This document shows, piece by piece, positions 1,463 to 56,933 of a DNA stretch of 64,000 bases; within the stretch, counting starts at the first letter, position 1, and every line of letters begins with the position of its first letter. The notes beneath the pieces are model-generated. The model did not search any database. It was not told where the DNA came from and saw only the letters and a program-made list of their open reading frames with translations. A program made the position numbers and the translations under genes. The DNA comes from Rotaria sordida (lineage: Eukaryota), in NCBI GenBank assembly GCA_905250005.1, contig CAJNOH010000668.1:1-64000 (forward strand), given 5' to 3'.

Positions 1463-1507
1463 AGATGTGGGTGTGAAATGAATACTTACACACCCACACC
1501 CACACCC
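1463..1507. repeat. Inverted telomeric-repeat pair. G-block gatgtgggtgtg, 14-bp spacer, C-block cacacccacacccacacccc.
   Basis: Read directly in the sequence. Confidence 0.85.
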
Positions 1508-6884: not shown

Positions 6885-7466
6885 ATGTTTATAGATGTCG
6901 ATTTTGAAAAAATAAATAGATCTTAAGACTGAAATGATTAGTGCAACGACAGAAGAACGACAAACATTACAACAACGATGTCAAACTAATAATTTGATAA
7001 TTATAAGTGATGATGAGTACGTAAAAGAAAAACGAAGAAAATATTGATAAATAAAATTTCATATTTTGTTTTTTTTTTGTTTACAGTGAATCATCAGTTG
7101 ACTTCGATGGTAAGACAAGTGGTAAGTAGAGCTTTCATTATAATGTAGTAACGTTTAAAAAGTATTCCAATATGATAGAACAAATTATTGTTTAGTATGA
7201 ACATTGTATTATTCAATGAGCGATTTGACTTTCATGTTGAATTCAAGAATAAATAGGAGTTCGATTTTTTTTGGATTGAATAAAAGAAGTATCAACCATT
7301 TCCGATAATCGAATGATGTAAGCCTAATTAAGGGAGATAAAGTTCGATTTCTATCATAAAATTTCAACTTTTGGATTCCATGTATAAATAAAGCAAAGAT
7401 GTTACTGTTATTTAAATCATGATGAACACAGGAAAATTATAAAAAATCCATAATATATTTGCAAAA

Positions 7467-7484
7467 CCCACACCCACACCCACA
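7467..7484. repeat. Single C-strand telomeric block (cccacacccacacccaca), intronic/intergenic within the PARP4-like locus.
   Basis: Read directly in the sequence. Confidence 0.8.
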
Positions 7485-9031: not shown

Positions 9032-12000
9032 GAGTTATGGAAATTTTTTGAAGCATGATTTAAAAGGAACGTTGAAGTATTTAACATTATTGATATACGA
9101 GTATAGATCGCATATCAATAACGACTTGCTACAATATCAGAATTCTTTTCTTATTTATATTTCGAGAGGATTATGTACAAGCAGATTGAAGAAATATTTC
9201 CCAAAGTTGTACTACCAATTGTTTTTTTCATTGATGACTAAACTTCATTCAAAAACTGATAATAAATATTCACTGTAATGTTTAATTTGAGATCCAGAGA
9301 GTTCAACATTTTTGATAATCCTTGTTTTTTAAAACATACATTGCCTAATTGCTTCTGCATATATTCCTGTTGTTCTATACTTGGAATGTAGATTTTATTT
9401 TAGAGAAGAAGCCTACACCAGAAGAGCCTTCAATGCAACAACAGTTGAAATTGGCTGAATTAGAGAATGAAGACGATGCTATGGATTGGAGCATTTTGGA
9501 CACTATGAACGAGTCCTCCTATATCGACTTTAGTAAGTTATGCATATACGTATATACAACAAAATTTTATAAGAATATCCCAATAAATATCAAAATCTCT
9601 CAAAAAATGAATTGTGGAAGCTACTAAGTAACCAACGGGATAATGGGTAAATATTAGGCTTTGACTGAACGAGACATTTTTGCAAAAAGTATGTAGAAAA
9701 CTTTATTATCATTCAGTATAGTCTATTCGCTAAATGTAGTCTAATATTAAAATTGATTTATTAGATAACTATGTTCTCTCATCATTTACAAATTGAGGTT
9801 AGTTTCAACTAGTCAACTACGATTAGTACATCGGCTAATCTTTAGAAGAATAGATGAGTGCCTAGCAATTATCAAACATTATATCTTTAGCATCCCCGTA
9901 TCATTTACTCAGCACTAAGATATTTCGGGAAAGAAATCGTTCATCATAAGGGTTTTCTAGTTCATTCTTTAAAGAACCAATTGTTTTTTTTTAAATGTCC
10001 GATACGGAGAATGATATTTTGTATATTGTCTATTTGCTGTAATGCTTTCTTTACGGATTATAGCAGTTGTATTTAGTGAAGAAGAGTGATTAATTTTTAG
10101 CACAAAAATATCAATCAAAATTGCAATTGATAACAAGTGACGCGAAACAACAGTCATTAGCGGATTATGGAGAAGCTGACTTATTTGGAGACGGCAGCGT
10201 TGGAGGCGACGATTTGGTTTCTCTCCGATTCACTGTCACCCGTGATTCTTCTTTAGCGAGTCATGATTTGACTACTACAAAGATAATTCCAGGTAATGAA
10301 GATAAATATTTTACATAATCGAATTTATTTGATTTATTTTCGAAATCTGAAGCCAAACAACTTCCAATATCTACTGTTGATAAAAACTTGGAAACGAAAA
10401 AGAGTGAGAGTACAGGTAAGATCGCTAATGGCATCAGATTTATTTCTTAATATTCTTTCCAGGATCTGTGCCTGCACCACCACCATTGCCACCAGTAAGA
10501 CTGGCCCAACAATTATCAAAATCTACTGCTATGAAACGAGCGTCTGTATTTTCCATAGTATATATAATGTAGTCATTAGTGTTTTCTGTTAGACCGTCAA
10601 CTAGTAAACAACAGTCAAGTCTAATATCGGCACAACTACCTAGACCTGAAATGTTGATTCTTCCCTCCGCTACCATCAGCCATGTCACGGCTCAAGCTCA
10701 AAGTGAGACCTGAATTTGACATACTAATGCATAATTGTCTTATATTTATTTTTATTTTTTGATATTTCTACTTTAATGAGATAAAGTCACGAACAGGAAT
10801 AATATTTTTCTTTGGGATATAACTTTAACTGTCAGAGTGATGCTTTCAATAAGACATGCCTTCACTCACTGCGCAGTTCTTATGTTGATCAAAGAGATAG
10901 CATTTTGAATTTTTCCTACAAAAGCGGACAGAAAATTAAGCATAGATTTTGCTGATGTATAGAAATCATTTTCTGTATTATCCAATACTTTTTAGGCGAA
11001 AACGATCGATGTCATCTCTCGTTTCAAAAAAAAAGACCAGGAGCATCTAGATTTTTGAATAACTCATGAAATAGATTTTCAATACTTACAGAAAAAAATT
11101 AGAAAATCAGAACTATGTTTCCAACCCGTCGTAGTTAAACGACTAGAATTGAATACTGAACTTCGGCACATTTTGTTTCTTTTTTTGTCGATGTCAAAAA
11201 TTTTAAAAAGTAATAAGCTCACCTTACAAACACAAAAAATGAATTTCCTGAATGCTTGATAAATATTTTCAATCATTTCGTAATAATATATGAGAAATCT
11301 AAAAGGAGTCGTTTTGTGAATTGAAATCCTGCTTTTTTACTTTATTTTTCTCAATAATTCTGCATGAGTCTTATTAAGATCTATTAGTTCCATTCAAAAT
11401 TGAGTCTTGCTTTCTATTTTTTCGTAGCTGCTTCATTTTCGTCTCAAAGGCTACCTGCGCCTCAATCACTGCGTCCGCCGCCGCCGCCACCACCACGACC
11501 ACAATTTATGCACCATTCAGCTGCAGTGAGAGGTAGAGGTGGGATGTCAAGGCCTTTACCACCACCAAGAGATGCTACAAAAACATCGATAGCATTTTCT
11601 GAGATGCCACCGCCTGCTGTTAATCAATCTCTTCAACAAAATTTTTCTCTACCACAATCAACTCCACGTAAGATATCTCCACATGTAATGACTTTGTATT
11701 CATTGAGTAATGAATTCGTAGTGTTTACGCCCTATTATGTGGCACCGATGGTCAACATTAACAATAATAACGCATCATTTGAGAGTAATACCATCGACAA
11801 ACAAACAGCGCTTCAGAGTAGCTCATCGCCAATATCTTTAGGTGGTTAGATAATGTAAACTATAGAATATAACTCTCGTTCTCTTTTAGATTTTAGTTTT
11901 AACGACGAATTTGTCAGCAATACATGTGACTTATTTGATGTTGCACCATTGCCTGCTTCTCGTAAGTCTCAAATAGAATGATATTCATTTTTGTGTTTGG

Positions 12001-13440
12001 TGTCATTAGATTTCTGATGAATACAATGTGGATTCATTTAGATTTGGAAACTTCTGCTGCTCCTCCTCCACCACCCCCTCCACCACCTCCTCCTCTACCA
12101 ACAACAACAGCAACAACATCATCATTTTTACTTGATAATTTCGACCAGGCTTTCGTCGGTGGTAGCAGCGTTTCAAATCAAAGTAAGACTGAAATTTTCT
12201 TTTCTTTGTATCCATATTATCCGTTGTTTGGATTAAATTTTCTCGTAGTATTGCTTTTATATATTATCTTGTTCGAACGAAAAACACAGTTGAACGTACC
12301 AAAGAAAAATAGTGTTACAAACATGTTTGCTTGTCGTGAGGATCTCGAAGTAACATTAAGTACCATAGGTTCATTTGCATGTCACCTACGTTGTTAGCCG
12401 AATATTGCAATCAAATGTTTCACTTCAAAATACAAAACACGTACATAGTGCATGTTCGATTAATTATTTATGAGATTTTGTTTATTTTTATTTATTTATT
12501 TAAAACTTCCGATATGAGCGTATGTGTAATCGTTAGTCAAATAATTAGTTGAATAGTAACCATAAAAATCAAAATCTTTGAGTATAAATGTACTTTCGAG
12601 GCTAATCTGCAGCAAGTTTGCCATTTGAACAGTCAATATCATCCAAACATAAAAAGCTATAACACGAATGATTTTTCATCAACGTCCTTTACGTTTTCAC
12701 ATGAGAAGAATTAGCAATGATGAAAACTTTTGGCGATACTATCATTAATTCATTGCCAGTTATGTACGTTAGACATATTACTTTCTAATTTGATGTTCAT
12801 TTTAGGTAGCGAATCAGCAGATCGACTCAAACGGGACGAACTCTTGGACGATATTTCAAGTTGCATTGCTCCTTCTTCGCTTTCTATAGCATCACCCAAA
12901 AAGTCATATCCAACAGTATCGCTAAAAATGAAAGCGGCAACAGATGAACCTCGTAGTAGTCGTGGTGGTTGTATGGGATCTTCAACAGCAGCAACACAGT
13001 CAGCGATAAGCACTAGTAAGTTACACTCACATGAACTTCTTGTTTATCTCGATTAATAAAACGTGAATATATGTACAATTTCAGAAGCTTCGCCACGTGG
13101 TCGTACATATGGTAAGCTATTTGAAATAACTCACTCATATATTCTACTTTTTCTTCTACAGATGAAGATAAATTGCTTGAAACGAGGTGTAGGAACAAGA
13201 TAAAAGCAAAGTTTCAAGACTTCGAAGTATGTACATTAACATGTAATTTTTTGTTCGGGAATTTCATTCATTTCTAGAAGCAAGATGATGATGATAAAAA
13301 GGCAAGTTTCTTATCTAGCGAGACAACACTGAGCTCTATAGTTGGTAAAAGAAAAAATGTCGAAACGTAAGTTTTAACATATATCAAGTAGATGAACTAC
13401 GATTAATTATTAATCATCTAAATTTAGCCTTCAATCAAAA

Positions 13441-14031
13441 ATGAAAGAAGTTCCAACATCCAACACATCTATATGTGATCTCCTTCTTCTCGATGTCTGT
13501 CCGCTTGGTTTCGGCATTGAAGATATTCATGGTCAAATGCATACACTTATTCGTCGCAATACAACAATCCCAACACGTACACAATTCTATTCAGTGTTCA
13601 CAAATGCTTATGCCTATCAAACAACAGCTACCATTCGTATATTTGAAGGTGAACATAATCTTACAAAATACAATGTATGTGATGTTCGAAATTCAACATT
13701 TTTTTTTTCGATAACTTTTTCTATTGTAGACACTCTTGGGCGAGTTTAGTCTTTCTGGTCTGACAACTAATTATGCTGCTCAGACACTCGAAATCTCTAT
13801 TCGCATGGATCTTGATGCTAATGGTATACTTCATGTTGATGCTGAAGAAGCACGTTCGGCTGCCAAAGCTTCCTTTAATTTCACACCTAATAATCAACAA
13901 AGTACAATAATTATATAACTGTTTGATATTGTAATTAAATCCTATTTATATTTATATAGGATTGACAGCAGATGATATTGCGCGACATATTACATATGTT
14001 AATAGTGACCCACGTTTTACAGCTAAATCGG
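13441..14031 (+). CDS. Hsp70 substrate-binding-domain (SBD)-like exons, at least 3. No Hsp70 ATPase/nucleotide-binding domain is detectable upstream.
   Basis: Translation LLLDVCPLGFGIEDIHGQMHTLIRRNTTIPTRTQFYSVFTNAYAYQTTATIRIFEGEHNLTKYN / TLGRVSLSGLTTNYAAQTLEISIRMDLDANGILHVDAEEARS / DRLTADDIARHITYVNSD parallels canonical Hsp70 [56 protein letters not shown]...[38 protein letters not shown]...GRLSKEEIERMV. Upstream exons (12780-13370) are low-complexity. Downstream exons to ~14970 were not assigned. Confidence 0.65.
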
Positions 14032-15198
14032 GTGAGTGTTGAAAGTGTAAATGATAGTTAATTATTATTATTATTATTTTGTAGTCTATAATCGCATACC
14101 AAATGATCCATTGTATATGGTTTGTATTATGACATATTTTTAGAGTTTGTTTGTTTACTTTTCTGATCTTTTGTTAGCTCGATGGTCAAACTGAATCTAT
14201 AATGCACAATTTTTCTGGTGAACCTATCACTTCACGTGGTAATTTATTCATTATTGTTATTGACAACAATAGTATTTGAATTTAGGTCAAACGACTAGTA
14301 TTCCACTTTTCAGTAAACTGAAAGATGTTCGATCTACTACAACCATGATTGAAGAACTTTTCAATCTTCAATCCAAAGTTGTATTATTTTGGAATTTCAT
14401 TAAACATTTATTGTTTTGTATTTAATTCGAATATAGGATGGTTCATTTACATTGAATAAAGAATTAGCTGATGTATTTCATATTGATTTTGATATTTTCC
14501 ATGGTCTTGAAAACTACTTACGTAAACAAGGTTTTAACTCATTGGGTAACGTTGAATGGTTTATTATTAACGTGTAGAAATATGAGGTCTTTGTTTTTTT
14601 AGCATTGAATATACGCAATGACATTCTTCGTTTGATCGGCACGGGCGTTATTCTTATTTGGCTTGTTCTTCAAACACAAGCATCACAACAGAATACATTT
14701 CAATTTTTATTTAACATCGAACAAATCAAAGTGAGCTGAATTTTTTTTTCGATCTTCTCATTTTCTAGATTCATTTTTTTATATCTTGAAGGTTCATCTT
14801 TGCAGCCATTTACCTGCTAATATGAGCGAACAAATAAACAAAGCGATCGAATTCTATCAACAAACAAATCAACGTAATGGTATATATTGCACGCAATTAG
14901 AATTAAGTGATTCATCATGGAACATGTTTATTCAACGTATACTTATTGGTATCGATCCCGTCGATAATTAAAAAATGACTCAGCAATGACTTGTCTGCTT
15001 TTTCAAATATTTTTTCTTTTTACACTTTTATTATCCTAACCATGAAACGTTTCGACAAAAAAAAAGAAAGTTCGAAGATATTCTTATACTACTCAATTTC
15101 ATGTAGTTGGAAGAATCTTACTTGAATTGTTTTGTCGTACGGGTAATGATTCATATCCTGTGACTGAGCTCGAAAATGTTTCTTACACATCGATGAGC

Positions 15199-15251
15199 GT
15201 GTGAGCGTGGGTGTGGGTATGATCTTTCATTCACTTACATCCACATCCACA
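15199..15251. repeat. Inverted telomeric-repeat pair: gtgtgagcgtgggtgtgggtat ... catccacatccacac.
   Basis: Read directly in the sequence. It lies ~350 bp upstream of the GC-rich SDR fragment. Confidence 0.85.
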
Positions 15252-15616
15252 CTGTAGCTGAACGTTGGAATAAGAATGAGAAGTAAAAATATTTCCACAA
15301 ATTGGTAAAACTCCCATGGATTTATTCAAATTTTCTTTCCTGAGCAACGTATGATTGGACTATCTGTATTTCGAAAAGTATTTTGCTATCTTGTGCAACG
15401 AATGAACATTGAAACCAGATTGCTCCTCCGTCAACAATGACAGCGCAGAAACACACAGCAACTTCAGGTGCTACTACAAGTGAGCACGCCATATTTTCTT
15501 CTCTCTTATCTGAGTTTTTTCCTTTCTGCTATCTAATCGACGGCATAGTGGGTGTGTCCACACAACGCAAGTAGTTGCATTTTTTTCTACGTGCGTGAAT
15601 AAAAAAAAGAAGAAAG

Positions 15617-15989
15617 ATGACTAGCAGCGGTGGCATCGGCTTTGCTATGGCACAAGCCGTGCTCATCAAGAAGCATGATCTTAGCCGCGCTGGAGGCTGC
15701 ATCATTCTGACCACCGGCGTGTCCATTGATCATTTGCCACCGGGGGTTAACCATGGATGCTGGTGTGGACGGGATCATCGTCGCACTCGTGCGCGCTCTC
15801 GCCGTGGATGTGACATCCAAGGTGCGGGTCTGCGGCGTCAGCTCCGGACCCGTGCTCACCAAACTGTGGGATAACGTCGTCCAGGAACAGACGGAGCGCC
15901 AGGCTCTCATAAACTACTATGAGACGAAGACGCTTACGGGGCGTGTGGCTAAGCCCGAAGAGACGGTCGAGGCTTATCTCACGACTTAA
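15617..15989 (+). pseudogene. GC-rich (~60% GC) fragment of a bacterial-type short-chain dehydrogenase/reductase (SDR). Truncated or internally deleted, with a frameshift near 15760.
   Basis: Frame 1: TSSGGIGFAMAQAVLIKKHDL...IILTTGVSIDHLPPGVNHG. This looks like the SDR Gly-rich TGxxxGIG region and the strand leading to the active site. Frame 2: GVDGIIVALVRALAVDVTSKVRVCGVSSGPVLTKLWDN...TKTLTGRVAKPEETVEAYL. This matches the SDR xAxKAGVxGLTRALAxDL...RVNxVSPGxVxT...GRxGxPEExAxAxxFL C-terminal half. The total is only ~124 aa against ~250 for an intact SDR. Base composition contrasts sharply with the ~30% GC flanks. Confidence 0.6.
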
Positions 15990-16899
15990 CATTTATGTAA
16001 TACGCTGATGTAGAATGAAATACTAATATTCATTTTCTTTTCTGGAAGAAAGAGTTTTTCAAACGTAAAGTGTTTGTGTGTCTATCTGTCCAACCAATCA
16101 GAAAGTAGTATTTTTCGGAAATGCAATAAGCTAAGCTTCCCAATGGAACGTATGCCATTCTATTTAACTCTGATATTTTGTAAGGATGTTTTTTTCTGAA
16201 TAACTTCGTTTAGCATAGACATATTTAAAAATATCAGCTTTTTCAGATATCGTTAGAATAAAATTAATTAATTAAGAAGTAATTAACGAATATCTTTCTA
16301 ATCATATGAGAAAAATTTCAAAAATTTTAGGATAGACTGTACGACACGACCTATATTTTACGGTGAAATTTCTAGCAAGATTGGACTCCAAAAATCTCCC
16401 TCATAAAACTGGCTCTCTAAGATTCCTATCAAGCTTTGAAAAAAAAAATTTTCGTCTTATGATAATGTGCAGACCCTGAAGGATTTGTACCATTTGAATT
16501 ACGCCGCAAACAAATGATTTTGTTTATATATGGGTATATAAACTCTTCACTCGTTGTTGCGTACATTCATTTCTTCATTCATTCTATTTGGTCATATAAA
16601 TTAGTGCTGCTCTTTATTTTTGTTTTTCAGGAATCGATCGAGGGGTGCAGAATCTGTCAGAGATTCCCTGGAACAGACAGAAAAGCATAGCAAATTTTCC
16701 CCAACCTGTAAAATGTATGAGCCAAGAGGAAAAACTGATTCATAGTGCTAGAAATTACTGTCAATTATCAGAAATCACTAATAATCACTGTAATGCGTTA
16801 AGGATACACAAAAATGACTTGACGTGGTTAGAAACTACTGGAGGCCATCTGAAATCATTGATAACTATTGAATATCACCAATAATAAGGTCAAAAAGTG

Positions 16900-17140: not shown

Positions 17141-18630
17141 GGAGTATTGTCTGTTTGTCGATACTATATCGAACTCTATTTCAAGCTTTCTTTTCCTTCT
17201 CCAATTTTCTCCGAGAGCTCAGTTTTTCTCGTGAATGTCGTTCCAGCCTACAGACAGATTCTCCACTCCTGAATGAATCTTATATTGAAATTGAATAATA
17301 CCAAAATAGTGTCTCCGTAAATAAAGATGAATGCACCATGAGTTGACTAATTCAAATTCGAATATAAATGAAGACTGAACAGTATAATTTGAATTCGAAA
17401 ATAACTGCAATCGTCATCTGAAGTGAGATGGATATTTCATTGTCAGTTCAGAATTAGAATTAGTTTTTTTCCACGCAAATTCGAGTTCACGTGGACAAAA
17501 ATTAATTCTAATTCTGCTCTTACAATGATGTATATACCGCGGTTCGAATTCAAATTGAAAGCATCTGAATCTTAATATGAAGCTGGTTCTGATTCTATTA
17601 CAGGCTGTGGTCTTACAGTTGTTCGAAAAATCTGAATTATATTCGAACTCGAATGAGACAACTACTCTGAATTTCCATGTCAATTGACTTGCATTATCAC
17701 GAGAATAGATTTAATAAAGACGACAAAGAACAACAAAAGCAAGTTGGACAAAGAAATTCATAAGATAATGTACGAATATTTATTATACAAAACTAGCTTC
17801 TTCTTGATTAACATCGACAAAATAAACGCGAACTTCGATACGATTCGTATCAATATCTAAAAAAGAAAAGTCAACCAAGCCATTCATTCGATAAGATTTC
17901 TCATCATTTATTGAAAATGTCATTCGATGCCAGATTCTACGATTATCTGAAGTAACAATCGCTTTATCATGTTTATAATGATTTGATGTGAACACATTCA
18001 CTAATCGATATTTTTGCATTGCATGTTCTAATTCAATTTGAAACAAGAGCTATTCAACGAACTATCATCTTCAGATTGATATCGAAATTGATTGATTTAC
18101 TTCAGTATGAGTATTGACATTCTATGGAAGATGAACACAGAATCGATAAACTTTTTTACAGTATAAAATTTGAACTCGATAAATTTGATTTAAGTCGAAT
18201 TTTTCCATTGGAATAACTTAAAAAAACTGAAATATTCCTTGATGAAATCAGATTCTTATCTGATACATTTCTGCATAGGCATATCGTTCCATCGATGAGA
18301 TTCAACAATACAAAAAATGTTTTATCACTTCGAAATAGTGTTTCTACAAATCAAACGATTAGATCAAAGAAATCGTTTTATTTGAGTTCACTAGTGATAA
18401 CAAAGAAATACTACATGTTTTACAGAAAAATCAAAATACATCTTTAGAAGAAAAGAAATGATTAATTAACCAATTAGATGATGAAAGAAACGTTACAATC
18501 GGTCTGTGATATTGTTCAAATTTCTTTCAAGTGTCGATTTCTGTTGTTAAAGTTGTTTTTAATAACCTTTGTATACTAGAGAAATCTGGTTGGTTGTATT
18601 CAAAGCAGTTTCTAGAACAATGGTTCTGAG

Positions 18631-22262: not shown

Positions 22263-22315
22263 GATGTGGGTGTGGATGGCGCGAAGACTCAGAACCCCTA
22301 CCACACCCACACCCC
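22263..22315. repeat. Inverted telomeric-repeat pair: gatgtgggtgtggatgg ... cccctaccacacccacacccc.
   Basis: Read directly in the sequence. Confidence 0.85.
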
Positions 22316-25286: not shown

Positions 25287-27129
25287 GATATGTGGTCTTC
25301 GAAATTCATCTCCAAAAATATCGACGACAAGAAATTGTTATAAATCAAGGCACCCCAGAAAATGTGTGAACGTCGCTTAGAAAATCTTTCATAACAATTG
25401 AAAACAGCACAGTTGTTTTTTTGTTGTAATTGTATTAAAGAAATTTATTTGTAATTTGTCGTCTATCAGTGATCAATAAATATCTCTATGTTCGACTTAG
25501 AAGAAAAGTAGACTTTAGATTTCTTCTGTAATCTCTGTAACAAAAAAATTTTTACGCTCCGACAAAAATCTTCGATTATCAACAGAAATATACATGCAAA
25601 CATGTTTTATATGAGAGAATTTACGACGTGAAACTCTGAACATCCTAGGTGTCTTCGGGTAAAATGATGTTCAAGCGCTGCTTTCTTACATTTACCTAAA
25701 AACAATGCCTACAAATGGCCATCCAATATGCGTTTTTTTTTTCTGCTGAAGGTGTGTAAAAACAGCGTTTATCAAGATCCTGTAATTTAAGGGAACCTGA
25801 ATATTTTTGTCTCATTTACAATACGTCCAAGCTAGACAACAATGACCAGACAAATTGTCTAAAAATGTTCGGTCGCTAGTAATCTAACTGATGTTGTGTA
25901 AAGATGTTCAACTATTTCTGTTTCTTTAGATTGTTCGGTGGATTGAAAACCAATCTCTTCAGGTACTCGTTTTGTCAAAAGAGATATAATAGAAGCGGTT
26001 GAGGTTTTTTTTAAGGCAAACTATATGAAAATGTTTAGGTTATGTAAATTTACACTATAATCGACACTCATATGGCCTTTACACAAAGAGAAAAATATAT
26101 TCTGTTTTTTTCCTTTCTACGTTCAAGTGTAGCAGCAAGCCTTGACTGTACTATACGTTGAGATCAATTATAGCTCTCTTTTCAGTAAATATGACACAAT
26201 CTCACAGTGTCAAATAAAAATCATATGTAAACAATTCCAGGTTTCATCTTTTCTGAGTTAAGAACAAGTTAAGAAAATGATAAAAGATCTCACTGTTTAA
26301 GATCTATGTGTCAATCATATCTCGGTCCCAGTACGCCATGAGCCCGAGTCCTTTTGGGTTTTTCTTAGTCTCAGTGAGCCCTACTTGTAGCCAAAATATG
26401 GAGTCAAACGGCGTTGGACAGTTGGATATGTTTTCTCGTTAACCAGTTCGAGCAATGAGAACATCTCGAACTGATTTATCGACTAACACAATACGACGAA
26501 CGGCTTTTGACTTTAAGTATGTAAATCTTTTTCACTTCTTCTATTATTCAAAGAAAATCTTGAAATCATAAAACTATTTTGTCACCTTAAATTTTTATGA
26601 AATAACCAATGTTTTTACTTTGTCCACTTTTAGATGATTATTTGACCAATAGTCGAAACGCGTCGTATGGTGCTTTGAATCTATTCGATGAAAACTCACC
26701 ATCACACCTTCACCCTTACCATAAAAGACAAGTGTTGAAAGAAATAGCCAATTTGGGGTTGAAGACATGTTTTTTCCTTCAACATGCTTCTTCGAAACTT
26801 TCAGCGTGCCCTAACAACTTTTTAGAGAAATGAGAACGATTTACCGTTCAATGCATCATCATAGAGACAAAATATGAGAGAATCAGCATTAAAAGCCTAT
26901 AATTTGATCTAGTCAAAAAATATATACTCCTATTTTAGTCAATGAGGATTAACGCCAAAAACATCAACGAGACTTGTAAAATAAAGACATAGAAAGAGTA
27001 TAAAATGCTCATTTTATTTAATGCGAAAAACATATTATAAACTTGTTTTATTTTAAAGAAAAATTGTTTGAAAAGTGCTGCATTATTTTTGCAAAATATT
27101 GCATTAATACCAAGTCAATTATGAACATT

Positions 27130-30100
27130 ATCGGTACACAAACAAGACTTCTGTTCAACTCTTCCGCTCACCTCCAACCAAACATTACTACTCGCTCTTA
27201 TCATCGAACTCCACATCACAAACAAACATCCACCAAGACACTTCTGTTCGTCCCTTTTGCTCACTTTGAACCATACCTTGCCACTCCCTCTCGTCATCGC
27301 ATACAACGTCGCAAAGGAACATTCATTATCAGACTTCTGTTCACCTAGTTTGCCAACTTCCAACCAAACGCTGCCACTCACTCTCATCATCGGGCATTAC
27401 ATCATAAATGCACATGCATAATGATACTTTTGTTCACCTTTTTTGCTCATTTCCAACTAAACGTTGTCACTCGCTCTCATTATCTAATATTACACCACAA
27501 AGGAACATTCATAATGATATTTGTGTTCACCTATTTTACTCAATTCAAACCCAACGTTGTCACTTCCACTCATCATCAAACATCACATCACAATCAAACA
27601 TTGATAAGCAGAATTCTATTCACCTTTTTTGCTCACATTGAGTCAAACATTCCCAATCACTCTCATCATCGTACATCATATCACCAACAAACATTCATAA
27701 TGATACTTTTGTTTACCTCTTTTGCTCATTTCGAACCAAACATTGCCGTTCACTTTCATCATCGAACATCACACTACAAATGAATATTACTCATAACACT
27801 TCAGTTCGCCTCTTTTGCTCACTTCGAACCAAACATTGCCATTCACTCTCATGATCGAACATCACATTACAAACGAATATTACTCATAAGACTTCAGTTC
27901 ACCTCTTTTGCTTATTTCGAACCAAACATTCCTATTCACTCTCATCATGGACCATCACATCACAATCGAATATTCATAACCAGAACTCTTTTCCCCTCTT
28001 TTACTCAATTCGACGCAAATGTTGCCACTCAGTGTCATCAACGAACATCACAGCACAACCGAACATTCATTATCAGACTTCTGTTCACCTCTTTTGCTTA
28101 CTTCAAGCCAAACGTTGCCACTCACTCTTATCATCTAACATCGCCTCACAAACGAACATTCATAAGCAGAATTCAGTTCACCTCATTTGCTCACTTCAAA
28201 CCAAACGTCACCGCTCTCTCTCATCATCGAACATCACACCATAAACGGACATTCTTCACCAGGCTTTTGTTCACCTCTTTTCCTCACTTCAAACCAAATG
28301 TTGCCACTCATTCTCATTATCGAACACCACACTACAAACGAACATTACTCAAGATACTTCCGTTCACCTCTTTTGCTCACTTAGAATCAAACCTTGTCAC
28401 TCTCTCTCATCATCGAACACCACATCACAAACGAACATTCATTATCAGAATTCTGTTCAACTAGTTTGGTCACTTGAAACCGAACGTTGTCACTCACTCT
28501 CATCATCGAACATTACATCATAAATGAACATTCATAATGATACTTCTGTCCATCTCTTTTGTTCACTTTGAATCAAACCTTGCCATTCACTCATCATGGA
28601 ACATCACATTGCAAATGAACATCCATAAAAAGGCTTCTGTTCACCTAGTTTGTTCACTTCGAATTGAACGTTGTCACTCATTCTCATCATCAAACATTAC
28701 ATCTTAAACGAACATTCATAATGATACTTTTGTTCACCTCTTTTGCTCATTTCGAACCAAACGTTGGCACTCACTCATCATCGAATATCACATCACAAAC
28801 GAACATTCAGCAATATATTTCTGTTCACCTCTTTTGCTCACTTCGAACTAAATATTGCCATTCACTCTCATCATGGAACATCACATCACAAACGAACATT
28901 CAAAAGCAGAATTTTCTTCATCTGTTTTGCTCACTTTGAACCAAACGTTGCCATTCACTGTCATCATCGAGCATCACATCGCAAACAGACATGCATAAGC
29001 AGAATTCTGTTCACCTCTTTTGCTCACTTCGAACTAAACATTGCCATCCACTCTCATCATCGAACATCACATCACAAACGATCATGCAGAAGCAGAATTC
29101 TGTTTACCTCTTTTGCTTACTTCGAGCCAAATGTTGCCACTCACTCATCATCGAATATCACATCAGAAACGAACATTCCTCAAGATACTTCTGTTCACCT
29201 AGTTTGCTCATTGCGAACCAAAGGTTGCTATTCACTCTCATCATTGAACGTCACATCACAATCGAACATTCATTATCAGAATTTTGTTCGCCTCTTTTAC
29301 TCACTCCGAACGAAACGTTTTCACTCACTCTCATCATCGAACATCACGTCACAAACGAACATTCATTATCAGATTTCTGTTCACCCCTTTTGCTCAGCCT
29401 GAACCAAACTTTGCCAGTCACTCTCATCATCGAATATCACATCATAACCAGACATTCATCACCAGACTTCTGTTCACTTCTTTTTCTCACTTCGAACCAA
29501 ATGTTGCCACTCATTGTCATCATCAAACATCACATCACAAACGAACATTCATTATCAGATTTCGGTTCACCTCTTTTACTCACTGCAAACCAAACATTGC
29601 CACTCACTCTCGTCAACGAACAAGACACCAGAAACGAAGATTCATCAATATACTTTTGTTCACTTCTTTTGCTCATTTCGAACCAAATGTTGCCACTCGC
29701 TGTGATCATCGAACATCACATCATAAACAAACATTCATGAACATACTGCTGTTCACCTTTTTTTACTCACTTCGAACCGAACGTTGTCACTCAATCTCAT
29801 CATCGAACATCACATCGCAAACGAACATTCCTTACAATACTTCTCTTCACTTCTCTTGCTCATTTCGAACCAAACATTGTCACTCACTCGCATCATCGAA
29901 AATCACGCCACAAACGAATATTACTCAAGATACTTGTATTCACCTAATTTGCTCACTTTGAATCATAGATTGCCACTCACTCATCATGTAATATCACATC
30001 ACAAACGAATATCCATAAAAAGACTTCTGTTCGCCTCTTTTGCTTGCTTCGAATGAAACCTTGCCAGTCACTCATCATCGAGCATCACATCACAAACGAA

Positions 30101-30295
30101 TATTACTCATAAGGCTTTCGCTCATCTCTTTCGCTTACTTCGAACTAAACGTTGCCATTCACTTTCAGCATCGAATATCACATCACAAACGAACATCCAT
30201 AAAAAGACTTCTGTTCACCTCTGTTGCTCAATTCGAATCAAACATTGCTACTCACTCACATCATCGAACAGTGCATCACAAAGGATTTTAACAAC
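27130..30295 (+). repeat. Tandem array of a 93-bp monomer, ~34 copies. Approximate consensus: TTCTGTTCACCTCTTTTGCTCACTTCGAACCAAACGTTGCCACTCACTCTCATCATCGAACATCACATCACAAACGAACATTCATAATCAGAC. Copies are 80-90% identical with no length variation.
   Basis: Successive occurrences of the ttcacct core fall at 27342, 27435, 27528, 27621, 27714, 27807..., exactly 93 bp apart. The array continues to ~30295. Overlapping + strand ORFs in all three frames (219, 249, 225 aa) are artefacts of the stop-poor CA-rich composition. The minus strand is closed. Confidence 0.9.
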
Positions 30296-30299
30296 ATGT

Positions 30300-32050
30300 T
30301 GCATCAACTATCCATGCATCAATGAGAACAACTTTGAAGTGAAATGGTCGCTATAGTTAGAGGAGTATATGTCATGTGGCAAACGGATAACTATGAATAA
30401 TATCATATCCGTTTATTTTCACGAAGCTGAAAGAAATAATGGAAAAATTTTTGTTAGTTTATAATCACATATCAAATGAATAGTTATAACGCTTTTTGAA
30501 ACTCTCGGAATGCTTCTATTCATCTATGTGTCCTACTTACTTTGAAGGTTGAACCAATTCATTGACCGAATGACTTACAGTAAATGAATAATTATCAAAT
30601 TTAGAATTTCATTCACGTATTTACTACCATCTAGGTGGAAGATGTTGCATTGGTACGAAAGAAAACAATCACAAGTCAAATGATTGATTATCATTATTAT
30701 TGTGTTCATCAATAGTGTTCATTGCGAATCGAATATTACCTCTCAGTACTGTTGATCAAATATCGTATGATTAGTGAATAAGCATCATCATGGTTTTGTT
30801 CATTTATCTTAGCCACTTTGAAATAAAAGATTCGAGTTTTGTTGATTTCAAAATGATGTCATGATATACCAACATTTATTCGATAAGAAATTTGTTCGGT
30901 TATCTTCGTACATGCCTAATTAAATATTATAGATCAATGTACTAGTCGAGGGTGACAAAATCTATAGATCAACATAACGTTCCCAATGACGTTGTTCACC
31001 TATCTGGTTCTTTTATAACATATGGAACCATGCAAGATTGTCTAGTGATCCAAGATTGCATAAAAGCTGAATCATTAGGATCACTCTTGGACCAATTCTT
31101 CTATTCAATAGTATGATATTTGTTAAAATAGAATCTTGACGAATATGCACTTTTGAACGATGATGTGGCAAACGTTTGATCATAATTCTTCCAACGACTT
31201 TGTTCATCTATCTCACTCTCTAAGCACATGTGCTTTCTGACCTATCAACTTGATCAACGATCACATGAAAAGAAAATCATACGTATTTTGGATGGTATAT
31301 TCACCTATTTTACTTACTATGATGCAAATTTTTCGATGGATGCGTGCGTTCTACGATTACATCACAAATAAATCGTTATTAGCCATGTGAAACTTGTTAA
31401 ATAATTTTGTTCATCTATTGTATGCCCATAAAAGCAGGAATTCAAGAAAGATAAATTTATCGAGAGTCATTAGTCAAATGAATGATCATCATCTCCTATA
31501 GGTTCTGTGCATGTATTTTGTTTACATCAGAGTGAATATTTTGATTCAGTGTTTCAACAGTATTCGCATGATAATTGCGTGATTTTAATAAAACCAATGA
31601 GACTGTTCGTCTATTTTCTTTAATATCAAGCAAAACTATGGAGTCGCTAAACACAAAGAAGCTAATATATCCAATGAATCGGTCGAATCATTGTTCTGTT
31701 CGCTTATTTTGTTTTTTACTTTAATGCAAATCTTTGCAGTTCCTTCTCAAATTTAAGATCATATGAAACATGAATGATCATAACGACATTGGCCGCATTT
31801 GGTGCAAGTATTCTATCCAAAAATCTTGTTCACGAAGTAGAGAATCGATAGAGTCTATGTAGCAATTGAAATTTTGTTGCAATTGAATAACCTCTAGGAC
31901 GATAGTATTCGCTTATCTTGACTTTTCGAAGCATATTATGAAGGTTTTGAAACGATTATAGTTAGCATAAGAACCGAATTATTAGGACCACCGTTAACAT
32001 CCTATTCATTTATTTTTCTTTCTGTAAACGAAAGCTTTATTACAGCCAAC
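30300..32050 (+). repeat. Decayed relatives of the 93-bp repeat with irregular 90-200 bp spacing. They share the (t)tgttca(c/t)ctat(t)t and catcatc/gaatgatcat words.
   Basis: Recurring ttgttcatttatct (30794), gttgttcacctatctgg (30990), ctttgttcatctatctc (31198), tattcacctatttta (31300), ttttgttcatctattg (31408), ctgttcgtctatttt (31604), ttctgttcgcttatttt (31694). Confidence 0.55.
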
Positions 32051-37181: not shown

Positions 37182-37222
37182 GGGTGTAGGTGTGGATTCC
37201 TCTATTTCTATGGACACCCACA
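37182..37222. repeat. Inverted telomeric-repeat pair: gggtgtaggtgtgg ... cacccaca.
   Basis: Read directly in the sequence. Confidence 0.75.
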
Positions 37223-39099: not shown

Positions 39100-40773
39100 A
39101 TGATATATTTTGTAATATCCATAATTATTGGAATTATTTCGTATATAATCTACAAGAGATACAAAAACTCATTGAAGTCTCCTTCTACCACTACTCAGTA
39201 TGATCATGCCATAATTCTTGGAGGGAGCATTGGAGGAATCGTTACTGCAGCTTATTTATCTAAATATTTTAAACGAATAACTATTATTGAATCAGATGAT
39301 GTACTAAATGATATATTTATGAAATCTACACCTAGCGAAATATTAGATTATCGATGTCGACTTGAAAATCCAACATCATTAGGACGTTCAGGTGTTAGTC
39401 AAATATATCAATTACATGGACTTCAGGCTGAAGGTTATAAAATATTACAAGAATTATTTACTAATATAAAAGACAAATTATTCAATGAATATGGTGTTCG
39501 TACTTATTCAACAAAAAACGAGATCAAAGTAGCAATTGATGGTGTAGTCTTAAATCAATATTTAACCAAAGATATTGATTGGTTAGGTATTGATCGTTTT
39601 ACATTAGAAATAATTTTAAGAAAAGAATTCTGTTTGAAATTCAATAATCAAATTGAATGGAAATGTAATAGTAGAGTAATGAAATTAATTGTTAATCAAT
39701 CATCAAATATTGTTAAAGGTGTAAAATATCGATCAAAGAAAAATATCGATTCATCATCATTATTTGATATCTATGGAGATTTTATTATTGATTGTACTGG
39801 TCACAATACATCATCATCTAAATGGTTAAAAGAGAGTTTGAATTTAATTGTACCAACTGTACAAATACATTTTGGTGGTGGTGCTGTTACATTTATTGGT
39901 GAAAGATTTCGAACCGGTAATCTAACATTCGATTCAGCGGCTGTAATTGGTGTCATTGCTAATCCTCCGAAGAAAAATACTAGTTTTATTCTAAGTCCAG
40001 TGCGACAAATCAATACAACTGATCAAAATTCATTAGGAATATTAACAGCATGTGCTATAACCTGTGTTAATTCCGAATATCCACCTAATGATTCATATGA
40101 AAACTTATTAGAATGGACAAAAGAAAATCTAGATCCAGAATATTTTACGGTTATAAAATCAATAAAAATTTCTAGTCCAATAATTCCAAATCGTCATGCA
40201 ATTGATGATCGAAAGTATGTCGAAGTACTCGGTAAAAAATGGCCTCAAAATTATGTATTAATAGGTGATGCTATGTGTACATTTAATCCACAATATGCAC
40301 AAGGTATGACACATGCATGTAGACAGGCAAGAGAATTAGGAAAAATCTTTGGCGAAAATTGTCATAAATTAAAAGATATTTCTCATATTTTTAATCGTCG
40401 TGCTTCAAAAATTACTGAAGAATGTTGGCTTGCTTCGACTGTAAATGATTGGAAAATACCAACATTAAAAGTAATTGAAACAAATAAAAATGGTCAAGTG
40501 AAAATTTATCAAAGAGGTTATCATTCGGATATAACTAACAATGATGAACCACGAACACCTTTAAAAATACGATTTATGCAATGGTATAATTATTGGTTTT
40601 TTCAATGTGCATCGAAATCTGAACAATTAGCTACAGATTTCCTATTTGTTGTCAATCAATCGAGCAATCCATTAATATTAATGAAACCTACAACTTTTTT
40701 TAGAGTTATTCGTATGGCATTCATGAATTATTTAAAGGAGAAAGGTCTTTTTGGTAGAAGATCGACTTCATAG
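39100..40773 (+). CDS. FAD-dependent monooxygenase (class A flavoprotein hydroxylase / halogenase-like fold) with an N-terminal transmembrane anchor. Single exon, 557 aa.
   Basis: N-terminal helix MIYFVISIIIGIISYIIY. FAD-binding Rossmann GxGxxG: AIILGGSIGGIVTAAYLS. Second FAD motif YVLIGDAMCTFNPQYAQGMTHA (the GDAxH/NPxxGxGmn consensus of PHBH-family monooxygenases and flavin halogenases). The ORF is intronless, unlike neighbouring metazoan-type genes, and is bounded by telomeric-repeat islands at 37182-37222 and 41761-41822. Confidence 0.8.
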   Translation: MIYFVISIIIGIISYIIYKRYKNSLKSPSTTTQYDHAIILGGSIGGIVTAAYLSKYFKRITIIESDDVLNDIFMKSTPSEILDYRCRLENPTSLGRSGVSQIYQLHGLQAEGYKILQELFTNIKDKLFNEYGVRTYSTKNEIKVAIDGVVLNQYLTKDIDWLGIDRFTLEIILRKEFCLKFNNQIEWKCNSRVMKLIVNQSSNIVKGVKYRSKKNIDSSSLFDIYGDFIIDCTGHNTSSSKWLKESLNLIVPTVQIHFGGGAVTFIGERFRTGNLTFDSAAVIGVIANPPKKNTSFILSPVRQINTTDQNSLGILTACAITCVNSEYPPNDSYENLLEWTKENLDPEYFTVIKSIKISSPIIPNRHAIDDRKYVEVLGKKWPQNYVLIGDAMCTFNPQYAQGMTHACRQARELGKIFGENCHKLKDISHIFNRRASKITEECWLASTVNDWKIPTLKVIETNKNGQVKIYQRGYHSDITNNDEPRTPLKIRFMQWYNYWFFQCASKSEQLATDFLFVVNQSSNPLILMKPTTFFRVIRMAFMNYLKEKGLFGRRSTS

Positions 40774-41760: not shown

Positions 41761-41822
41761 ATGTAGGTGTGGGCATGGATGCGTTGTGTAGATAGTATCA
41801 TTGATTCACCCACACCTACATA
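41761..41822. repeat. Inverted telomeric-repeat pair: atgtaggtgtgggcatggatg ... cacccacacctacat.
   Basis: Read directly in the sequence. Confidence 0.8.
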
Positions 41823-42884: not shown

Positions 42885-43650
42885 GTGGGGGTGTACACCC
42901 TCCTACACCCCTCCCCACTTTCGCGGGTGCTGGGTACAAGATAATCATATTCTCTTGTACCAAGATCTTGAATCAGATCTTGAGTACAGATATGGAAGAT
43001 CTTGGGTAAAGATTCATAAGATCTTAGGTGTGGATTCATAAGATCTTGGATACATATTAAGATAAAACGTGTTGCATGAGGCGTGATTTGGGACACAATG
43101 TATAATACATTTTTGAAAGCGTCGTTCGAACCTATCAAATAGTGCATTCATTATTTTTTTTCTATAAAACCATGTTATGACATTTTTTCAATTTAGTTTA
43201 ATTTTAATTATTCCTATCCCAAATAACTGAAGCAAGTCAGATCTTAGAATCTGCCTGACCTTGAGATAGTTCGATCTTCATCAGACTGCTTCAAGGTAGT
43301 CCTCTCTCAATCATCGATCGAGATCAGCATGTTCTCGAATGATCAACACTAGAGAAATAGTTTTAAAAAACAAACTATATTGAAAATGTATGTTTTGTAT
43401 GTTCAATCACGTTGTTTCTGTATGGCTCTGTATGCATTAAAAAACGGCGAATGACTAGTCAACATGTAAACACTAATGATGTCGCTCTTTTACTCAAGTT
43501 CTTGTGAGAAGACAATAGTAAACGATGTCTTTTCTATGATCTTGACAAGATCTTAAGTACAGATTTATCCGATACAACCAAGATATTCACATACAAATTA
43601 TCTTTTCAAGATCTTATGAAGATCTTGCTTACAAGATGTTCGACTAGGGA
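42885..43650. repeat. Element bounded by clusters of the palindromic word AAGATCTTG. Clusters lie at 42956-43065 (6 copies) and 43541-43640 (5 copies). The element begins at a zero-spacer inverted telomeric junction GGGTGTACACCC.
   Basis: caagatcttgaatcagatcttgagtac...gaagatcttgggtaaagattcataagatcttaggtgtggattcataagatcttgga, then ...gatcttgacaagatcttaagtac...caagatcttatgaagatcttgcttacaagatg. 42889-42900 gggtgtacaccc is a perfect 12-bp palindrome. Possibly a DNA-transposon remnant. The minus ORF 42752-43147 is probably not real. Confidence 0.35.
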
Positions 43651-44324
43651 TTTGTTCTTTTACCTTTAATTTAAAACAAGTAATGTTTAAGTACCTAATA
43701 GGAATTACATTAATAAGACCCTTCTTTTATTATCAAATGAATCGTCAACTTCGATTTTTTTTATTACAATAAGTTTTAGGGTCATCATTTACATTTACTT
43801 TTTTGTTCTGGTCTTTGTCATGAATCAACCATTTGAGTCATGTTGTTTTACGAAAAAAAGTCAAATACACAGAACAGAAAAATGTCGACAGTCGTCAGAA
43901 TGATTCTCTCGCCTTTTATTTTGCAACATACTAAATTTCACAACTACCGAGTTGGATGTGTTATATACATCACATTTCTAGATACTCCTATCAACTGAAT
44001 GCATTACTTCAACGGCTACCAAACGTACTAGATAATATTTGTGTATAGTTTCACATGATAGAAATCTCGTATAATTAGTATAAATTTCGGAAGTACGTCT
44101 GTCACTCGGCAATTTTGCTTTGTATTACATCGAGACATCTACACTTACGTCATCTTCCATCTTCACTGACCTATCACAAGTAAAGCAACGATACACTTTT
44201 GTTTTTCTCTGCAGTTGTTAAATCATCCACTTTTTGCGTACATACATGTTACTAATTCTATAAAAAATTTTATTCATAGTAACGAAATCAACTCTTATTA
44301 CAAGCGTAACAACTTACTTTTAAG

Positions 44325-47300: not shown

Positions 47301-47927
47301 GGTATTGTCGAGGAAATGCATATTGACGCTATCACACCACATTGTCTGACCACTGGTTATGGACAGAGTAAATGGGTGGCAGAGAAACTTATGAGAAAAG
47401 CTAGCTGTTTTGGTCTACCAGTTGTCATCTATCGGCTTGGCTCAATGTGCGCTAGCGTGAATAGTGGTGCCTGTAATCCACTCGATCTTCATACAATATT
47501 CATCATTGCCATATTGAAGACAGGTTCTTATCCGACCGAAGCGCTCAGCATGAGGCTCGACACTTTACCAGTGAATTTCGCTGCTAGCAATATCGTTCGT
47601 CTGAGTCTCGTTCGACCTGATGTGTATGGAAATGTCTATCATGTTGTTCATCCTGATGGTGGAGTGACATTTCAGAATATCGTTACAAGTGCGAAATTGT
47701 ATGGTGTAAAAGTAAACGATGTTCCTTTCGAACAATGGCGATCAACGATGCGAGGCCATTCATTTGAATCAGCCGACGAGTTGCTATTCGAGTTGATTTT
47801 CGGAAAACGATTAATATTATCGGCCAAACAATTTTACAGTATTGTATCTCCACTCAACATTCCGGCTATGGACAACGACTATACAAATAAATGGTTAGCA
47901 TTTATAATGCAAAATGTTCGACATTGA
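44325..47927 (+). CDS. NRPS-like carboxylic-acid/acyl reductase: N-terminal ZZ-type zinc finger, adenylation (AMP-binding, ANL), thiolation (PCP), and thioester reductase (R) domain. Two exons (44325-44988, 45184-47927; intron 44989-45183), ~1135 aa.
   Basis: ZZ: YCDVCKRNFDHGTFRYNCIVCPDYDQCKECTATMCPPHPHSL. A-domain cores: A3 IIYTSGSSGFPKGVMIS, A5 EDGYGITECGG, A7 FFRTGDIVEL, A8 IDRKKNFFKLSNGQFVSPEYLQ, A10 LLTSSLKPCRPK. T domain 4'-PP site: NFLATGGNSLAAVRLSRMV. R domain: VFVTGTTGFVGGFLLFEML (TGxTGFLG NAD(P) motif) and GYGQSKWVAEKL (YxxxK). Intron: donor ACAG|gtagga at 44988/44989, acceptor ttgttgtag|AC at 45183/45184, phase-consistent (…HTTT-D-TNSNE…). ORF 45144's MKITLIV start is therefore not a real start. 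Confidence 0.9.
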
Positions 47928-48251
47928 TGACATGTCATCATTTTCTATAATCATGTGAATCATTTTTGTAATATGTGCGGATGTTACACAAATAATAATA
48001 TATTCGGATAGAGAAACAACTTTCATTGTTTCAGTACAAGATAAAATTAATAGTAGAAAGTATATCCTGGAATTTTTTGGACGGTCAAAGAGATATTTAT
48101 TAAAAAGGATGAGTTGCATAAAAGCTAATATTGATTTGCACATACAACAAAAACAAGATCATTTTCGTTTCTTGTATTGTTTTGTGTACATTGTTTTGAC
48201 CAACTAAATACAAGTCAAATAACTTGTACAAAGAACTGGTTGCTTTGTTTG

Positions 48252-48614
48252 TAGGGGTAGGGTGGAGTGCGGTTGTGGTTGCGGGTGTGGATATCGGTGT
48301 GTGGGTGTGGATGTGGATGAAGGAAGTACCTATACCCACACCCACACCTACCCATACACATCCACGCCCACACCCACATGCACACCCACACCCCACACCC
48401 AGTGTGGATATGGGATGTAGGTGTGAGGTAGAACAAAATCAACCAACTCAGGTACATACTTACAGCGACAGCGCCAACCACACCATAAATATTCCTAATA
48501 TCCAAATTCAAGTTTAAGTCAATGCGACATGATTGCCATCTTGAGGGTGAGTGTGGATGTGGGTGGATGGGTGTACGATTGTTTTCAACAACACCCATAA
48601 TCACCCACACCCGC
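48252..48614. repeat. Largest telomeric-repeat island with the block order G, C, G ... G, C. It sits immediately 3' of the A-T-R gene. The overlapping ORFs (48100-48396, 48215-48610, 48224-48517) are artefacts.
   Basis: gtaggggtagggtggagtgcggttgtggttgcgggtgtggatatcggtgtgtgggtgtggatgtgg / cccacacccacacctacccatacacatccacgcccacacccacatgcacacccacaccccacaccc / gtgtggatatgggatgtaggtgtgaggt / gggtgagtgtggatgtgggtggatgggtg / cacccataatcacccacacccgc. Confidence 0.9.
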
Positions 48615-53539: not shown

Positions 53540-53630
53540 GGGGTGTGAGTGTGAGGATAGTTCTTCTATTCATCCACACTCGCGCTCGCTTCAACCCGCA
53601 CTCGAAAAACCTACACCCACACACCCACAC
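53540..53630. repeat. Inverted telomeric-repeat pair 3' of the ART-TPR gene: gggtgtgagtgtgagg ... catccacactcgcgctcgcttcaacccgcactcg...cctacacccacacacccacac.
   Basis: Read directly in the sequence. Confidence 0.8.
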
Positions 53631-56872: not shown

Positions 56873-56933
56873 ATGGGTGTGGGTGAGTGTTCACTAAGAG
56901 ACAATAACATCCACACCGACACCCACACCCGCA
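56873..56933. repeat. Inverted telomeric-repeat pair: atgggtgtgggtgagtgt ... catccacaccgacacccacacccgcac.
   Basis: Read directly in the sequence. Confidence 0.85.

Follow-up and report, generated by a model that had tools for sequence, protein, structure and literature searches.

What is the short GC-rich island that interrupts the AT-rich DNA of the bdelloid rotifer Rotaria sordida in the first 64,000 nucleotides of contig CAJNOH010000668.1 (GenBank assembly GCA_905250005.1; this whole stretch is called the window below), and how was it acquired? The island, located at positions 15617-15989 of the plus strand, is probably a non-functional and horizontally acquired remnant of a gene coding for a short-chain dehydrogenase/reductase (SDR), related to the fungal/eukaryotic side of the family and set in a subtelomere-like mosaic of the Rotaria genome. 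An earlier description, made from the letters of the window and hereafter called the sequence-only reading, had seen in it a decaying bacterial gene.

The frame-corrected translation of the island (123 amino acids) was compared with profile and protein collections. It matches the Pfam family PF13561 (adh_short_C2) with an E-value of 8e-8 and 32.5 bits (cutoff 27), the frame-3 piece alone reaching 27.8 bits, and the SDR-like Rossmann family PF23441 with 27.3 bits (cutoff 27). A phmmer scan of 1.84 billion representative proteins returned 133 matches below 1e-3, the best being P0001, a protein of 259 amino acids (E 3e-17, 50% identity); a word-indexed protein search with the fragment gave no match. 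As judged from these scores, the SDR homology is far beyond chance. At the positions of the YxxxK motif, the fragment carries D...D, and the 39 aligned relatives are all devoid of Y and K (e.g. TAGVAGA). Because this motif is absent, the remnant cannot be called a 'classical' SDR, as the sequence-only reading had proposed.

Among the solved structures, the best matches are 6nkh, 6nkk and 6nkm (E 2e-9 to 1e-5), which we take to be the fungal MalC/PhqE enzymes, and a DHRS4 entry, the metazoan-type PDB structure with the highest score, reached 28 bits versus 40 bits for 6nkh. Residues 26-121 of the fragment align with residues 150-242 of 6nkh (E 2e-9). Both lack YxxxK and have in common the layout LTxG...PxxGW...R(G/A)LAVD(L)...RVN..SPG..T.LW...TGR.A.PE..AEAYL. 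Unlike these enzymes, the remnant encodes ~47% of the fold, at ~35-40% identity, with the W, the N of RVN and the P of SPG replaced, and the fragment bears no sign of a reductase or Diels-Alderase role. The only other SDR signal of the window (57727-58134) belongs to a second, unrelated SDR exon of the classical type at 57727-58146 (adh_short E 1e-31, YxxxK-type 'YCASKYAL', 43% GC). It was rejected as the source of the GC-rich remnant, being only ~23% identical to the subfamily of the latter.

The coding information is distributed over two frames, both containing the SDR peptides quoted in the sequence-only reading. Frame 2 (15617-15745) is translated as MTSSGGIGFAMAQAVLIKKHDLSRAGGCIILTTGVSIDHLPPG, and frame 3 (15753-15989) as MDAGVDGIIVALVRALAVDVTSKVRVCGVSSGPVLTKLWDNVVQEQTERQALINYYETKTLTGRVAKPEETVEAYLTT followed by a stop, starting with MDAGVDGIIVALVRALAVDV and ending with TGRVAKPEETVEAYLTT. 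Three blocks of the gene, named A, B and C, survive (Table 1), whereas ~20 codons at the start and ~22 at the end are gone, as are ~102 codons in the interior (aa ~34-135), which separated block A from block B and encoded the greater part of the Rossmann core. Since ~123 of ~259 codons were kept, the earlier estimate of about half an enzyme is correct. In tblastn searches with P0001, its residues 21-33 were placed on 15626-15664 (block A, 10/13 identities), its residues 129-162 on 15644-15751 in frame 2 (block B, 50% identity) and its residues 167-237 on 15759-15980 in frame 3 (block C, 46% identity), with a joint E-value of 4e-18; no other piece of the SDR gene was found by this search elsewhere in the window. 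The assignment of block A, the shortest one, is in agreement with the sequence GIGLAVAQAVL at the same place in the Tilletia homologue and with a search of the six-frame translated window by an N-terminal family profile (27 columns), in which block A was the top match (E 0.004, next 0.36). This block contains the SDR glycine-rich dinucleotide-binding motif (TGxxxGxG / GGxxGIG) as SSGGIGFAMAQAVL; the beta-1 strand that precedes it is missing.

The residues A10-L16 (15644-15664) align with both sides of the internal deletion, so that the junction lies within a microhomology. The lost codons were flanked by two short stretches that resemble each other, FAxAQA.. and ..AAMAAAKA. The sole frameshift is located in a run of five G: removal of one G restores a continuous reading frame of 123 codons, from the ATG at 15617 to the TAA at 15989, which is free of gaps versus its homologues, the corrected reading PPGLTMDAGVDG facing KPGKNWSQTAGVAG of P0001. 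The gene is thus both truncated and frameshifted, as had been claimed. It does not encode a complete ~250-residue Rossmann-fold domain; the island is the remnant of a gene and not a member protein of the SDR superfamily. Enzymatic function would be excluded, as little is left of the Rossmann core (aa 34-135 lost) and nothing of the C-terminal strand.

Two splicing-based explanations of this structure were rejected. Exon skipping does not account for the internal deletion: in L002, the closest genomic relative, introns are positioned at aa 21/22, ~122 and 148, which do not match the deletion ends at ~33 and ~136. The fragment is uninterrupted across two of these positions (aa 21/22 and 148), and the same introns are lacking in L004. 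An upstream ATG at 15438, with a potential donor site AA|GTGAGC at 15480, cannot be spliced onto the SDR frame since all candidate acceptors before 15617 meet a stop. Neither a 3' poly(A) nor a target-site duplication was found at the remnant. A 13-nt direct repeat was noticed within the island, with 12/13 matching positions between 15657-15669 (CCGTGCTCATCAA) and 15850-15862 (CCGTGCTCACCAA), the first copy coinciding exactly with the junction of the internal deletion; template switching may have left this repeat, or it may have arisen by chance (~0.05-0.1 expected).

The island of 373 bases has a GC content of 58% and a GC content at third codon positions (GC3) of 0.685, in flanks of ~30% GC, in agreement with the earlier remark that its composition is unlike its surroundings. 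In sliding windows of 50 nt, and also of 200 nt, GC increases from 0.30-0.42 to 0.54-0.68 across ~15620-15985, then drops abruptly after 15985 to reach 0.26-0.32 within 25-50 nt, with 0.26-0.30 by position 16000. When the window was divided into 1-kb bins, the one containing the island had 0.44 GC and every other bin 0.23-0.41. The GC3 of seven other genes measured in the window is between 0.15 (halogenase-like) and 0.39, with 0.35 for a gene resembling a nonribosomal peptide synthetase (NRPS). On the 5' side, an AT-rich boundary (Table 1) contains an in-frame stop 7 codons before the ATG and, in the tblastn search with P0001, shows no match to the first ~20 codons of the SDR family. The interval 15400-15616 is without SDR homology; of the segment 15400-15992 initially put forward as the SDR, only 15617-15989 is retained as the remnant. 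Searches for terminal inverted repeats, target-site duplications and repeats around the island gave only short matches at chance level.

How old is the insertion, and in which state did it arrive? The genes of the closest relatives have a GC3 of 0.48-0.63, not above the 0.685 of the remnant, whose composition displays no visible amelioration toward the host. The corrected reading is devoid of in-frame stops over its 123 codons. In forward simulations under an AT-biased model, the probability of such a stop-free reading was 0.10 at K=0.2 and 0.04 at K=0.3, which suggests, under this model, fewer than ~0.3 neutral substitutions per site; the data also point to a neutral divergence of the remnant not exceeding the non-coding divergence from Rotaria sp. 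Silwood1 (~15%). Conserved residues have been altered (RVN to RVC, PG to SG, GGS to GGC), and the fragment is scored by the fungal hidden Markov model (HMM) described below under every real member. These features would point to a young insertion, from an unsampled donor lineage, with a sequence free of selection. The arrival described as recent by the sequence-only reading is plausible in view of the high GC3 and the lack of stops, but only in a relative sense, as no donor exceeds 50% identity and conserved columns have changed; 'caught in the act of decay' is stronger than the data support.

The gene could nevertheless have arrived intact, perhaps worked, and been pseudogenised later by deletions and the frameshift. 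This scenario, which we regard as unlikely, would explain why 8 of 19 near-invariant columns are changed, suggesting a period of relaxed constraint, and it is compatible with an ATG positioned exactly at the 5' edge, with a frame open save for one homopolymer slip and with the intact state of the other foreign genes of the window. It is difficult to reconcile with the unameliorated GC3 of 0.685, versus 0.15-0.35 in resident foreign-type genes, since a long period of function should have shifted the codon usage; moreover, no rotifer homologue is found among the matches with readable source names. Three large truncations or deletions, a single 1-bp slip and no stop would fit breakage at integration better than slow decay. 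By the time of its fixation, the fragment was most likely in pieces already and had been rearranged through microhomology-mediated joining ('dead on arrival'); a gene that worked for long and then decayed is less likely. Left alone, the remnant should drift to ~30% GC and vanish.

The donor was then considered. The SDR subfamily characterized by 'GW...RVN' and the lack of YxxxK occurs in both fungi and bacteria, and the nearest relatives of the fragment (<=50% identity) are fungal or intron-bearing eukaryotic genes. Source names were checked for 20 of the best 23 matches. Seven carry a name, six of them fungal; the named top matches are Tilletia, Ceratobasidium, Copromyces/Pseudoneurospora, Meredithblackwellia, Sarea and, as sole bacterium, one metagenome-assembled genome of Microlunatus. 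P0001 is encoded on an mRNA-like contig of 1,029 nt with 50% GC. The gene of which P0005 forms an exon has three short introns (~40-50 bp) and is located on a 105-kb contig, in the neighbourhood of RabGAP, PRP38 and CAF1A fragments; P0002 is also split by an intron, and L002 and L004 have short introns of the spliceosomal type and eukaryotic gene neighbours. Among the matches with readable source names, no rotifer protein was found. The best matches come from outside the metazoa, and among the named ones no metazoan sequence comes near them; these data together with the composition support the claim that the gene is foreign-derived and was transferred horizontally.

In an alignment of 114 columns, the segment 'IKKHDL'/'KKHDL' of the fragment has the length observed in the fungal group, whereas all the named bacteria have a 2-residue gap; the motifs LAVD, TxLWD, TLTGRV and xPEE are also of fungal type, the named bacteria having LPVGRVGE. 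In 468/500 bootstrap replicates of neighbour-joining, the fragment fell together with all named fungi and apart from all named bacteria. As sister of the fragment, P0001 was recovered 256 times, Tilletia 124 times and P0009 89 times. An HMM built on the fungal members gave 83.4 bits for the fragment versus 64.0 bits for the bacterial one, a difference of 19.4 bits. In leave-one-out controls, this difference was positive for 24/24 fungal and negative for 9/9 bacterial sequences. The best reading of these comparisons places the fragment on the fungal/eukaryotic side of the atypical SDR subfamily, and leaves the word 'bacterial' unsupported.

A recent transfer of a classical bacterial SDR, now decaying, is accordingly quite improbable. 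Bacterial members of the subfamily do exist (Paraburkholderia, Methylobacterium, Streptomyces, Mucilaginibacter, Microlunatus), with 35-42% identity to the fragment, many soil bacteria have a high GC content, and bacteria are the commonest source of foreign genes in bdelloids, with 59% of the foreign transcripts (PMC3499245). The bootstrap split, the lead of the fungal HMM, the xPEE motif and the two additional residues of 'KKHDL' speak against such a donor, as does the lack of YxxxK. No relative was detected in 185,579 prokaryotic species genomes scanned by a pattern-plus-tblastn procedure, which was also applied to JGI metagenome contigs. The residual bacterial signals that the sequence-only reading had suggested looking for were searched at the island, and no ribosome-binding site, promoter or terminator above the level of shuffled sequence was found.

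Two further points are the identity of the host DNA and a possible assembly artefact, in which a fungal or bacterial contaminant read was stitched into the rotifer sequence. An open reading frame (ORF) of 927 amino acids at 45144-47927, built of adenylation, thiolation and reductase domains, shares 93% identity with a protein of Rotaria sp. Silwood1 and 65-67% with Adineta proteins. The block 43650-48238 shows 85-92% nucleotide identity to Silwood1 contigs (92.5% over 3.2 kb), and 22 near-perfect TGTGGGTGTGGG sites were counted in the window for a chance expectation of 0.03, the TGTGGG hexamer being the bdelloid telomeric repeat (PMC7943196, PMC8494291). Because of this Rotaria-like ORF and these telomeric sites, the designation as rotifer DNA is justified; from these identities, the host is a Rotaria that is close to R. 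sp. Silwood1 but distinct from it. The assembly joins the remnant to an Hsp70-like gene, to G-protein-coupled receptors and to the Rotaria NRPS-like gene. The abrupt composition change at both edges speaks for a stitched read, but the insert is only 373 bp long, with rotifer-like AT-rich DNA on both sides in one 64-kb window and a host telomeric 9-mer 54 bp away, and it does not correspond to one continuous piece of a donor genome: chimeric reads do not give a three-block remnant with an internal deletion of ~102 codons. We therefore consider an artefact very improbable. That the 123-codon ORF is real, the fifth G being a sequencing error, and encodes a domesticated mini-protein is scarcely credible: the frame becomes uninterrupted from ATG to TAA once a G is removed and the internal deletion is in frame, but the loss of aa 1-20, 34-135 and 238-259 leaves the Rossmann core incomplete, the conserved residues cited above are altered, and no identical or similar ORF exists in the collections searched (island ORFs of 85, 78 and 107 aa).

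Several points weigh against the interpretation as a young, fungal-side remnant that was dead on arrival. Relatives above 50% identity were found neither in the protein collections nor in the JGI metagenome contigs or the prokaryotic genomes and, for want of a close donor, the assignment rests on the 114-column alignment, the neighbour-joining trees and the HMM scores. At the columns conserved in at least 80% of the members, the fragment mismatches 8/19, compared with three at most in each of the 39 real members; this could indicate a residence longer than the composition implies, or a divergent donor. The frameshift in the G run could be a homopolymer sequencing error. At this site, a fragment dead on arrival and a gene arrived intact and then deleted look alike. 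Finally, the tie between the telomeric motifs and the capture is a spatial one.

No other animals are known to have acquired as many genes horizontally as bdelloid rotifers, and foreign genes and pseudogenes were reportedly described in bdelloid subtelomeres by Gladyshev, Meselson and Arkhipova in 2008 (reference 8 of PMC3499245). Uptake of foreign DNA during the repair of chromosome ends is a route long proposed for these animals. To our knowledge, the described cases are almost all old, ameliorated, intron-bearing and functional, so that the entry step has been inferred rather than seen. In the present case, foreign DNA, possibly cDNA, would have been captured while a broken or uncapped chromosome end was repaired.

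Foreign genes of bdelloids have been treated genome-wide (PMC8494291, PMC5916493), and together with transposable elements they are concentrated in dynamic subtelomeres with TGTGGG repeats (PMC8494291, PMC7943196); ~23% of the foreign transcripts are fungal (PMC3499245). The remnant resembles these genes in being a non-metazoan gene with host genes and short TGTGGG tracts around it, in a rearranged region poor in genes, and in having a donor class that is well represented. It differs from an intact or intron-bearing domesticated gene by its size of 373 bp, its un-ameliorated composition and its three-block structure, and no ortholog was present among the bdelloid proteins returned by the searches. 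Filler DNA at double-strand breaks, of the type of nuclear mitochondrial or plastid insertions (NUMT/NUPT) and microhomology-mediated end joining, offers another comparison: the insert is short, promoterless and dead on arrival, with truncated ends, an internal junction in microhomology and neither terminal inverted repeats nor target-site duplication. It comes from a foreign organism and not from an organelle, and its site lies beside telomeric junctions rather than at a generic break. Athena/Terminon Penelope-like retroelements (PMC5537684, PMC3846280) share with the window co-oriented ORFs followed by reverse-complement (ACACCC)n tracts in a subtelomere-like region. Here, the window ORFs tested gave no match to a reverse transcriptase or GIY-YIG domain, the tracts are mostly head-to-head G/C pairs and not single 3' tracts, and the SDR remnant itself is without a retroelement hallmark.

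The remnant is a fresh instance of the well-known uptake by bdelloids and, alone, leaves the overall picture unchanged. With its donor composition, its three pieces and its position tens of bases from a telomeric junction, it is a small datum on raw incoming DNA, which appears here as short, rearranged and mostly dead, and it shows that fungi, besides bacteria, feed the bdelloid stream of foreign DNA. Its added value lies in an un-ameliorated example and in a pointer to the head-to-head telomeric junctions.

Table 1. Coordinates of the SDR remnant, its boundaries and the telomeric motifs (window positions, except for the L006 row).
Feature	Position	Strand	Remark
AT-rich 5' boundary, gtgaataaaaaaaagaagaaag	15590-15616	+	abuts the ATG directly
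Block A, ATG and Gly-rich cofactor-loop/helix piece, MTSSGGIGFAMAQAVL	15617-15664	+	homologue aa ~20-33
Block B, frame 2, IKKHDLSRAGGCIILTTGVSIDHLPPG	15665-15745	+	homologue aa ~136-162
G5 homopolymer with the sole frameshift	15742-15746	+	one extra G
Block C, frame 3, LTMDAGVDGIIVALVRALAVDV...TGRVAKPEETVEAYLTT*	15747-15989	+	homologue aa ~163-237
Inverted head-to-head pair, gcgtgtgagcGTGGGTGTGGGT, 19-nt spacer, catccacatCCACAC	15199-15253	.	one of 8-9 pairs
Miniature head-to-head motif, GTGGGTGTG/TCCACAC	15548-15563	.	54 bp upstream of the remnant
Head-to-head telomeric pairs in the window	1466-1507, 15199-15253, 15548-15563, 22265-22314, 41766-41816
Head-to-head telomeric pairs in the window, further	48283-48401, 48551-48612, 55282-55480, 56874-56930
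Head-to-head telomeric pairs in L006	7067-7235, 7456-7519
Single C-strand tracts (ACACCC)n, four	256-271, 7466-7484, 37214-37222, 53613-53630

The inverted telomeric pair that the sequence-only reading had placed ~350 bp from the island was confirmed: it consists of an exact GTGGGTGTGGGT followed by a degenerate C-strand arm, catccacatccacac, and ends 364 bp before the ATG. Closer to the remnant, the miniature motif contains an exact telomeric 9-mer, of which 0.78 would be expected in the whole window from shuffled sequences. The pairs listed in Table 1 are all made of (TGTGGG)n, an AT-rich spacer of 13-40 nt and (CCCACA)n; the reverse order was never observed in the window. Like the C-only tracts, they are positioned between gene-sized blocks. 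Two of the C-strand tracts closely follow genes on the plus strand, VIT/VWA (tract at 7466) and TPR-ART (tract at 53613), and the long ORFs of the window are mostly on the plus strand.

In Rotaria sp. Silwood1, the same paired structure is found ~660 bp upstream of the NRPS-like block, with entirely different neighbours, and for this reason the paired tracts resemble scars left at the junctions where blocks were assembled, in line with the dynamic bdelloid subtelomeres, rich in transferred genes, transposable elements and telomeric repeats, known from the literature (PMC8494291, PMC7943196). The tracts may have arisen when one telomere was joined to another, or they may be the 3' hairpins of elements attached to telomeres. 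It is conceivable, though doubtful, that the SDR scrap is a fresh footprint of a process by which short alien fragments are ligated at deprotected or healed chromosome ends; equally tentative is the corresponding proposal that the head-to-head junctions are scars of a serial end-to-end joining of telomere-capped blocks. If true, un-ameliorated fragments beside such scars would allow the mechanism and the rate of capture to be read from genomes.

The nearest upstream host gene is a divergent, multi-exon Hsp70-like gene (11400-14971, Hsp70 Pfam match at 13441-13749), whose last exon ends 646 bp upstream of the remnant; proline-rich ORFs with poly-P runs at ~11450 and ~12050 are located ahead of it. 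The NRPS-like gene at 44325-47927, of the carboxylate-reductase type, combines ZZ, AMP-binding, PP-binding and NAD_binding_4 domains, with an apparent short intron at ~45040-45182. The gene is 80% identical to an ENA contig, and the block that carries it has moved, since the flanking genes differ in the window, in Silwood1 and in this contig. An intronless ORF of 557 amino acids at 39100-40773 weakly matches tryptophan halogenases (flavin-dependent halogenases) and, because its GC3 is only 0.15, is considered a foreign-type gene that is fully ameliorated, unlike the SDR scrap. At 51137-53422, an ORF of 761 amino acids combines an ADP-ribosyltransferase domain (ART / ADPrib_exo_Tox) and a long TPR array.

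A tandem array of ~3.3 kb at 27100-30370 is composed of ~26 or more copies of a 93-bp unit, 60-80% identical to each other. It has a very strong C-over-G skew of ~-0.5, is overlapped by several plus-strand ORFs of 220-250 aa and is probably a coding region with a 31-residue repeat. A palindrome at 17432-17533, in AT-rich sequence on the downstream side of the remnant, has arms of 51 nt, 80% complementary and without spacer. An inverted repeat at 49470-49711, upstream of the TPR-ART gene, has arms of 98 nt, 89% complementary, separated by a 46-nt loop. Both could be hairpin elements or elements resembling miniature inverted-repeat transposable elements.

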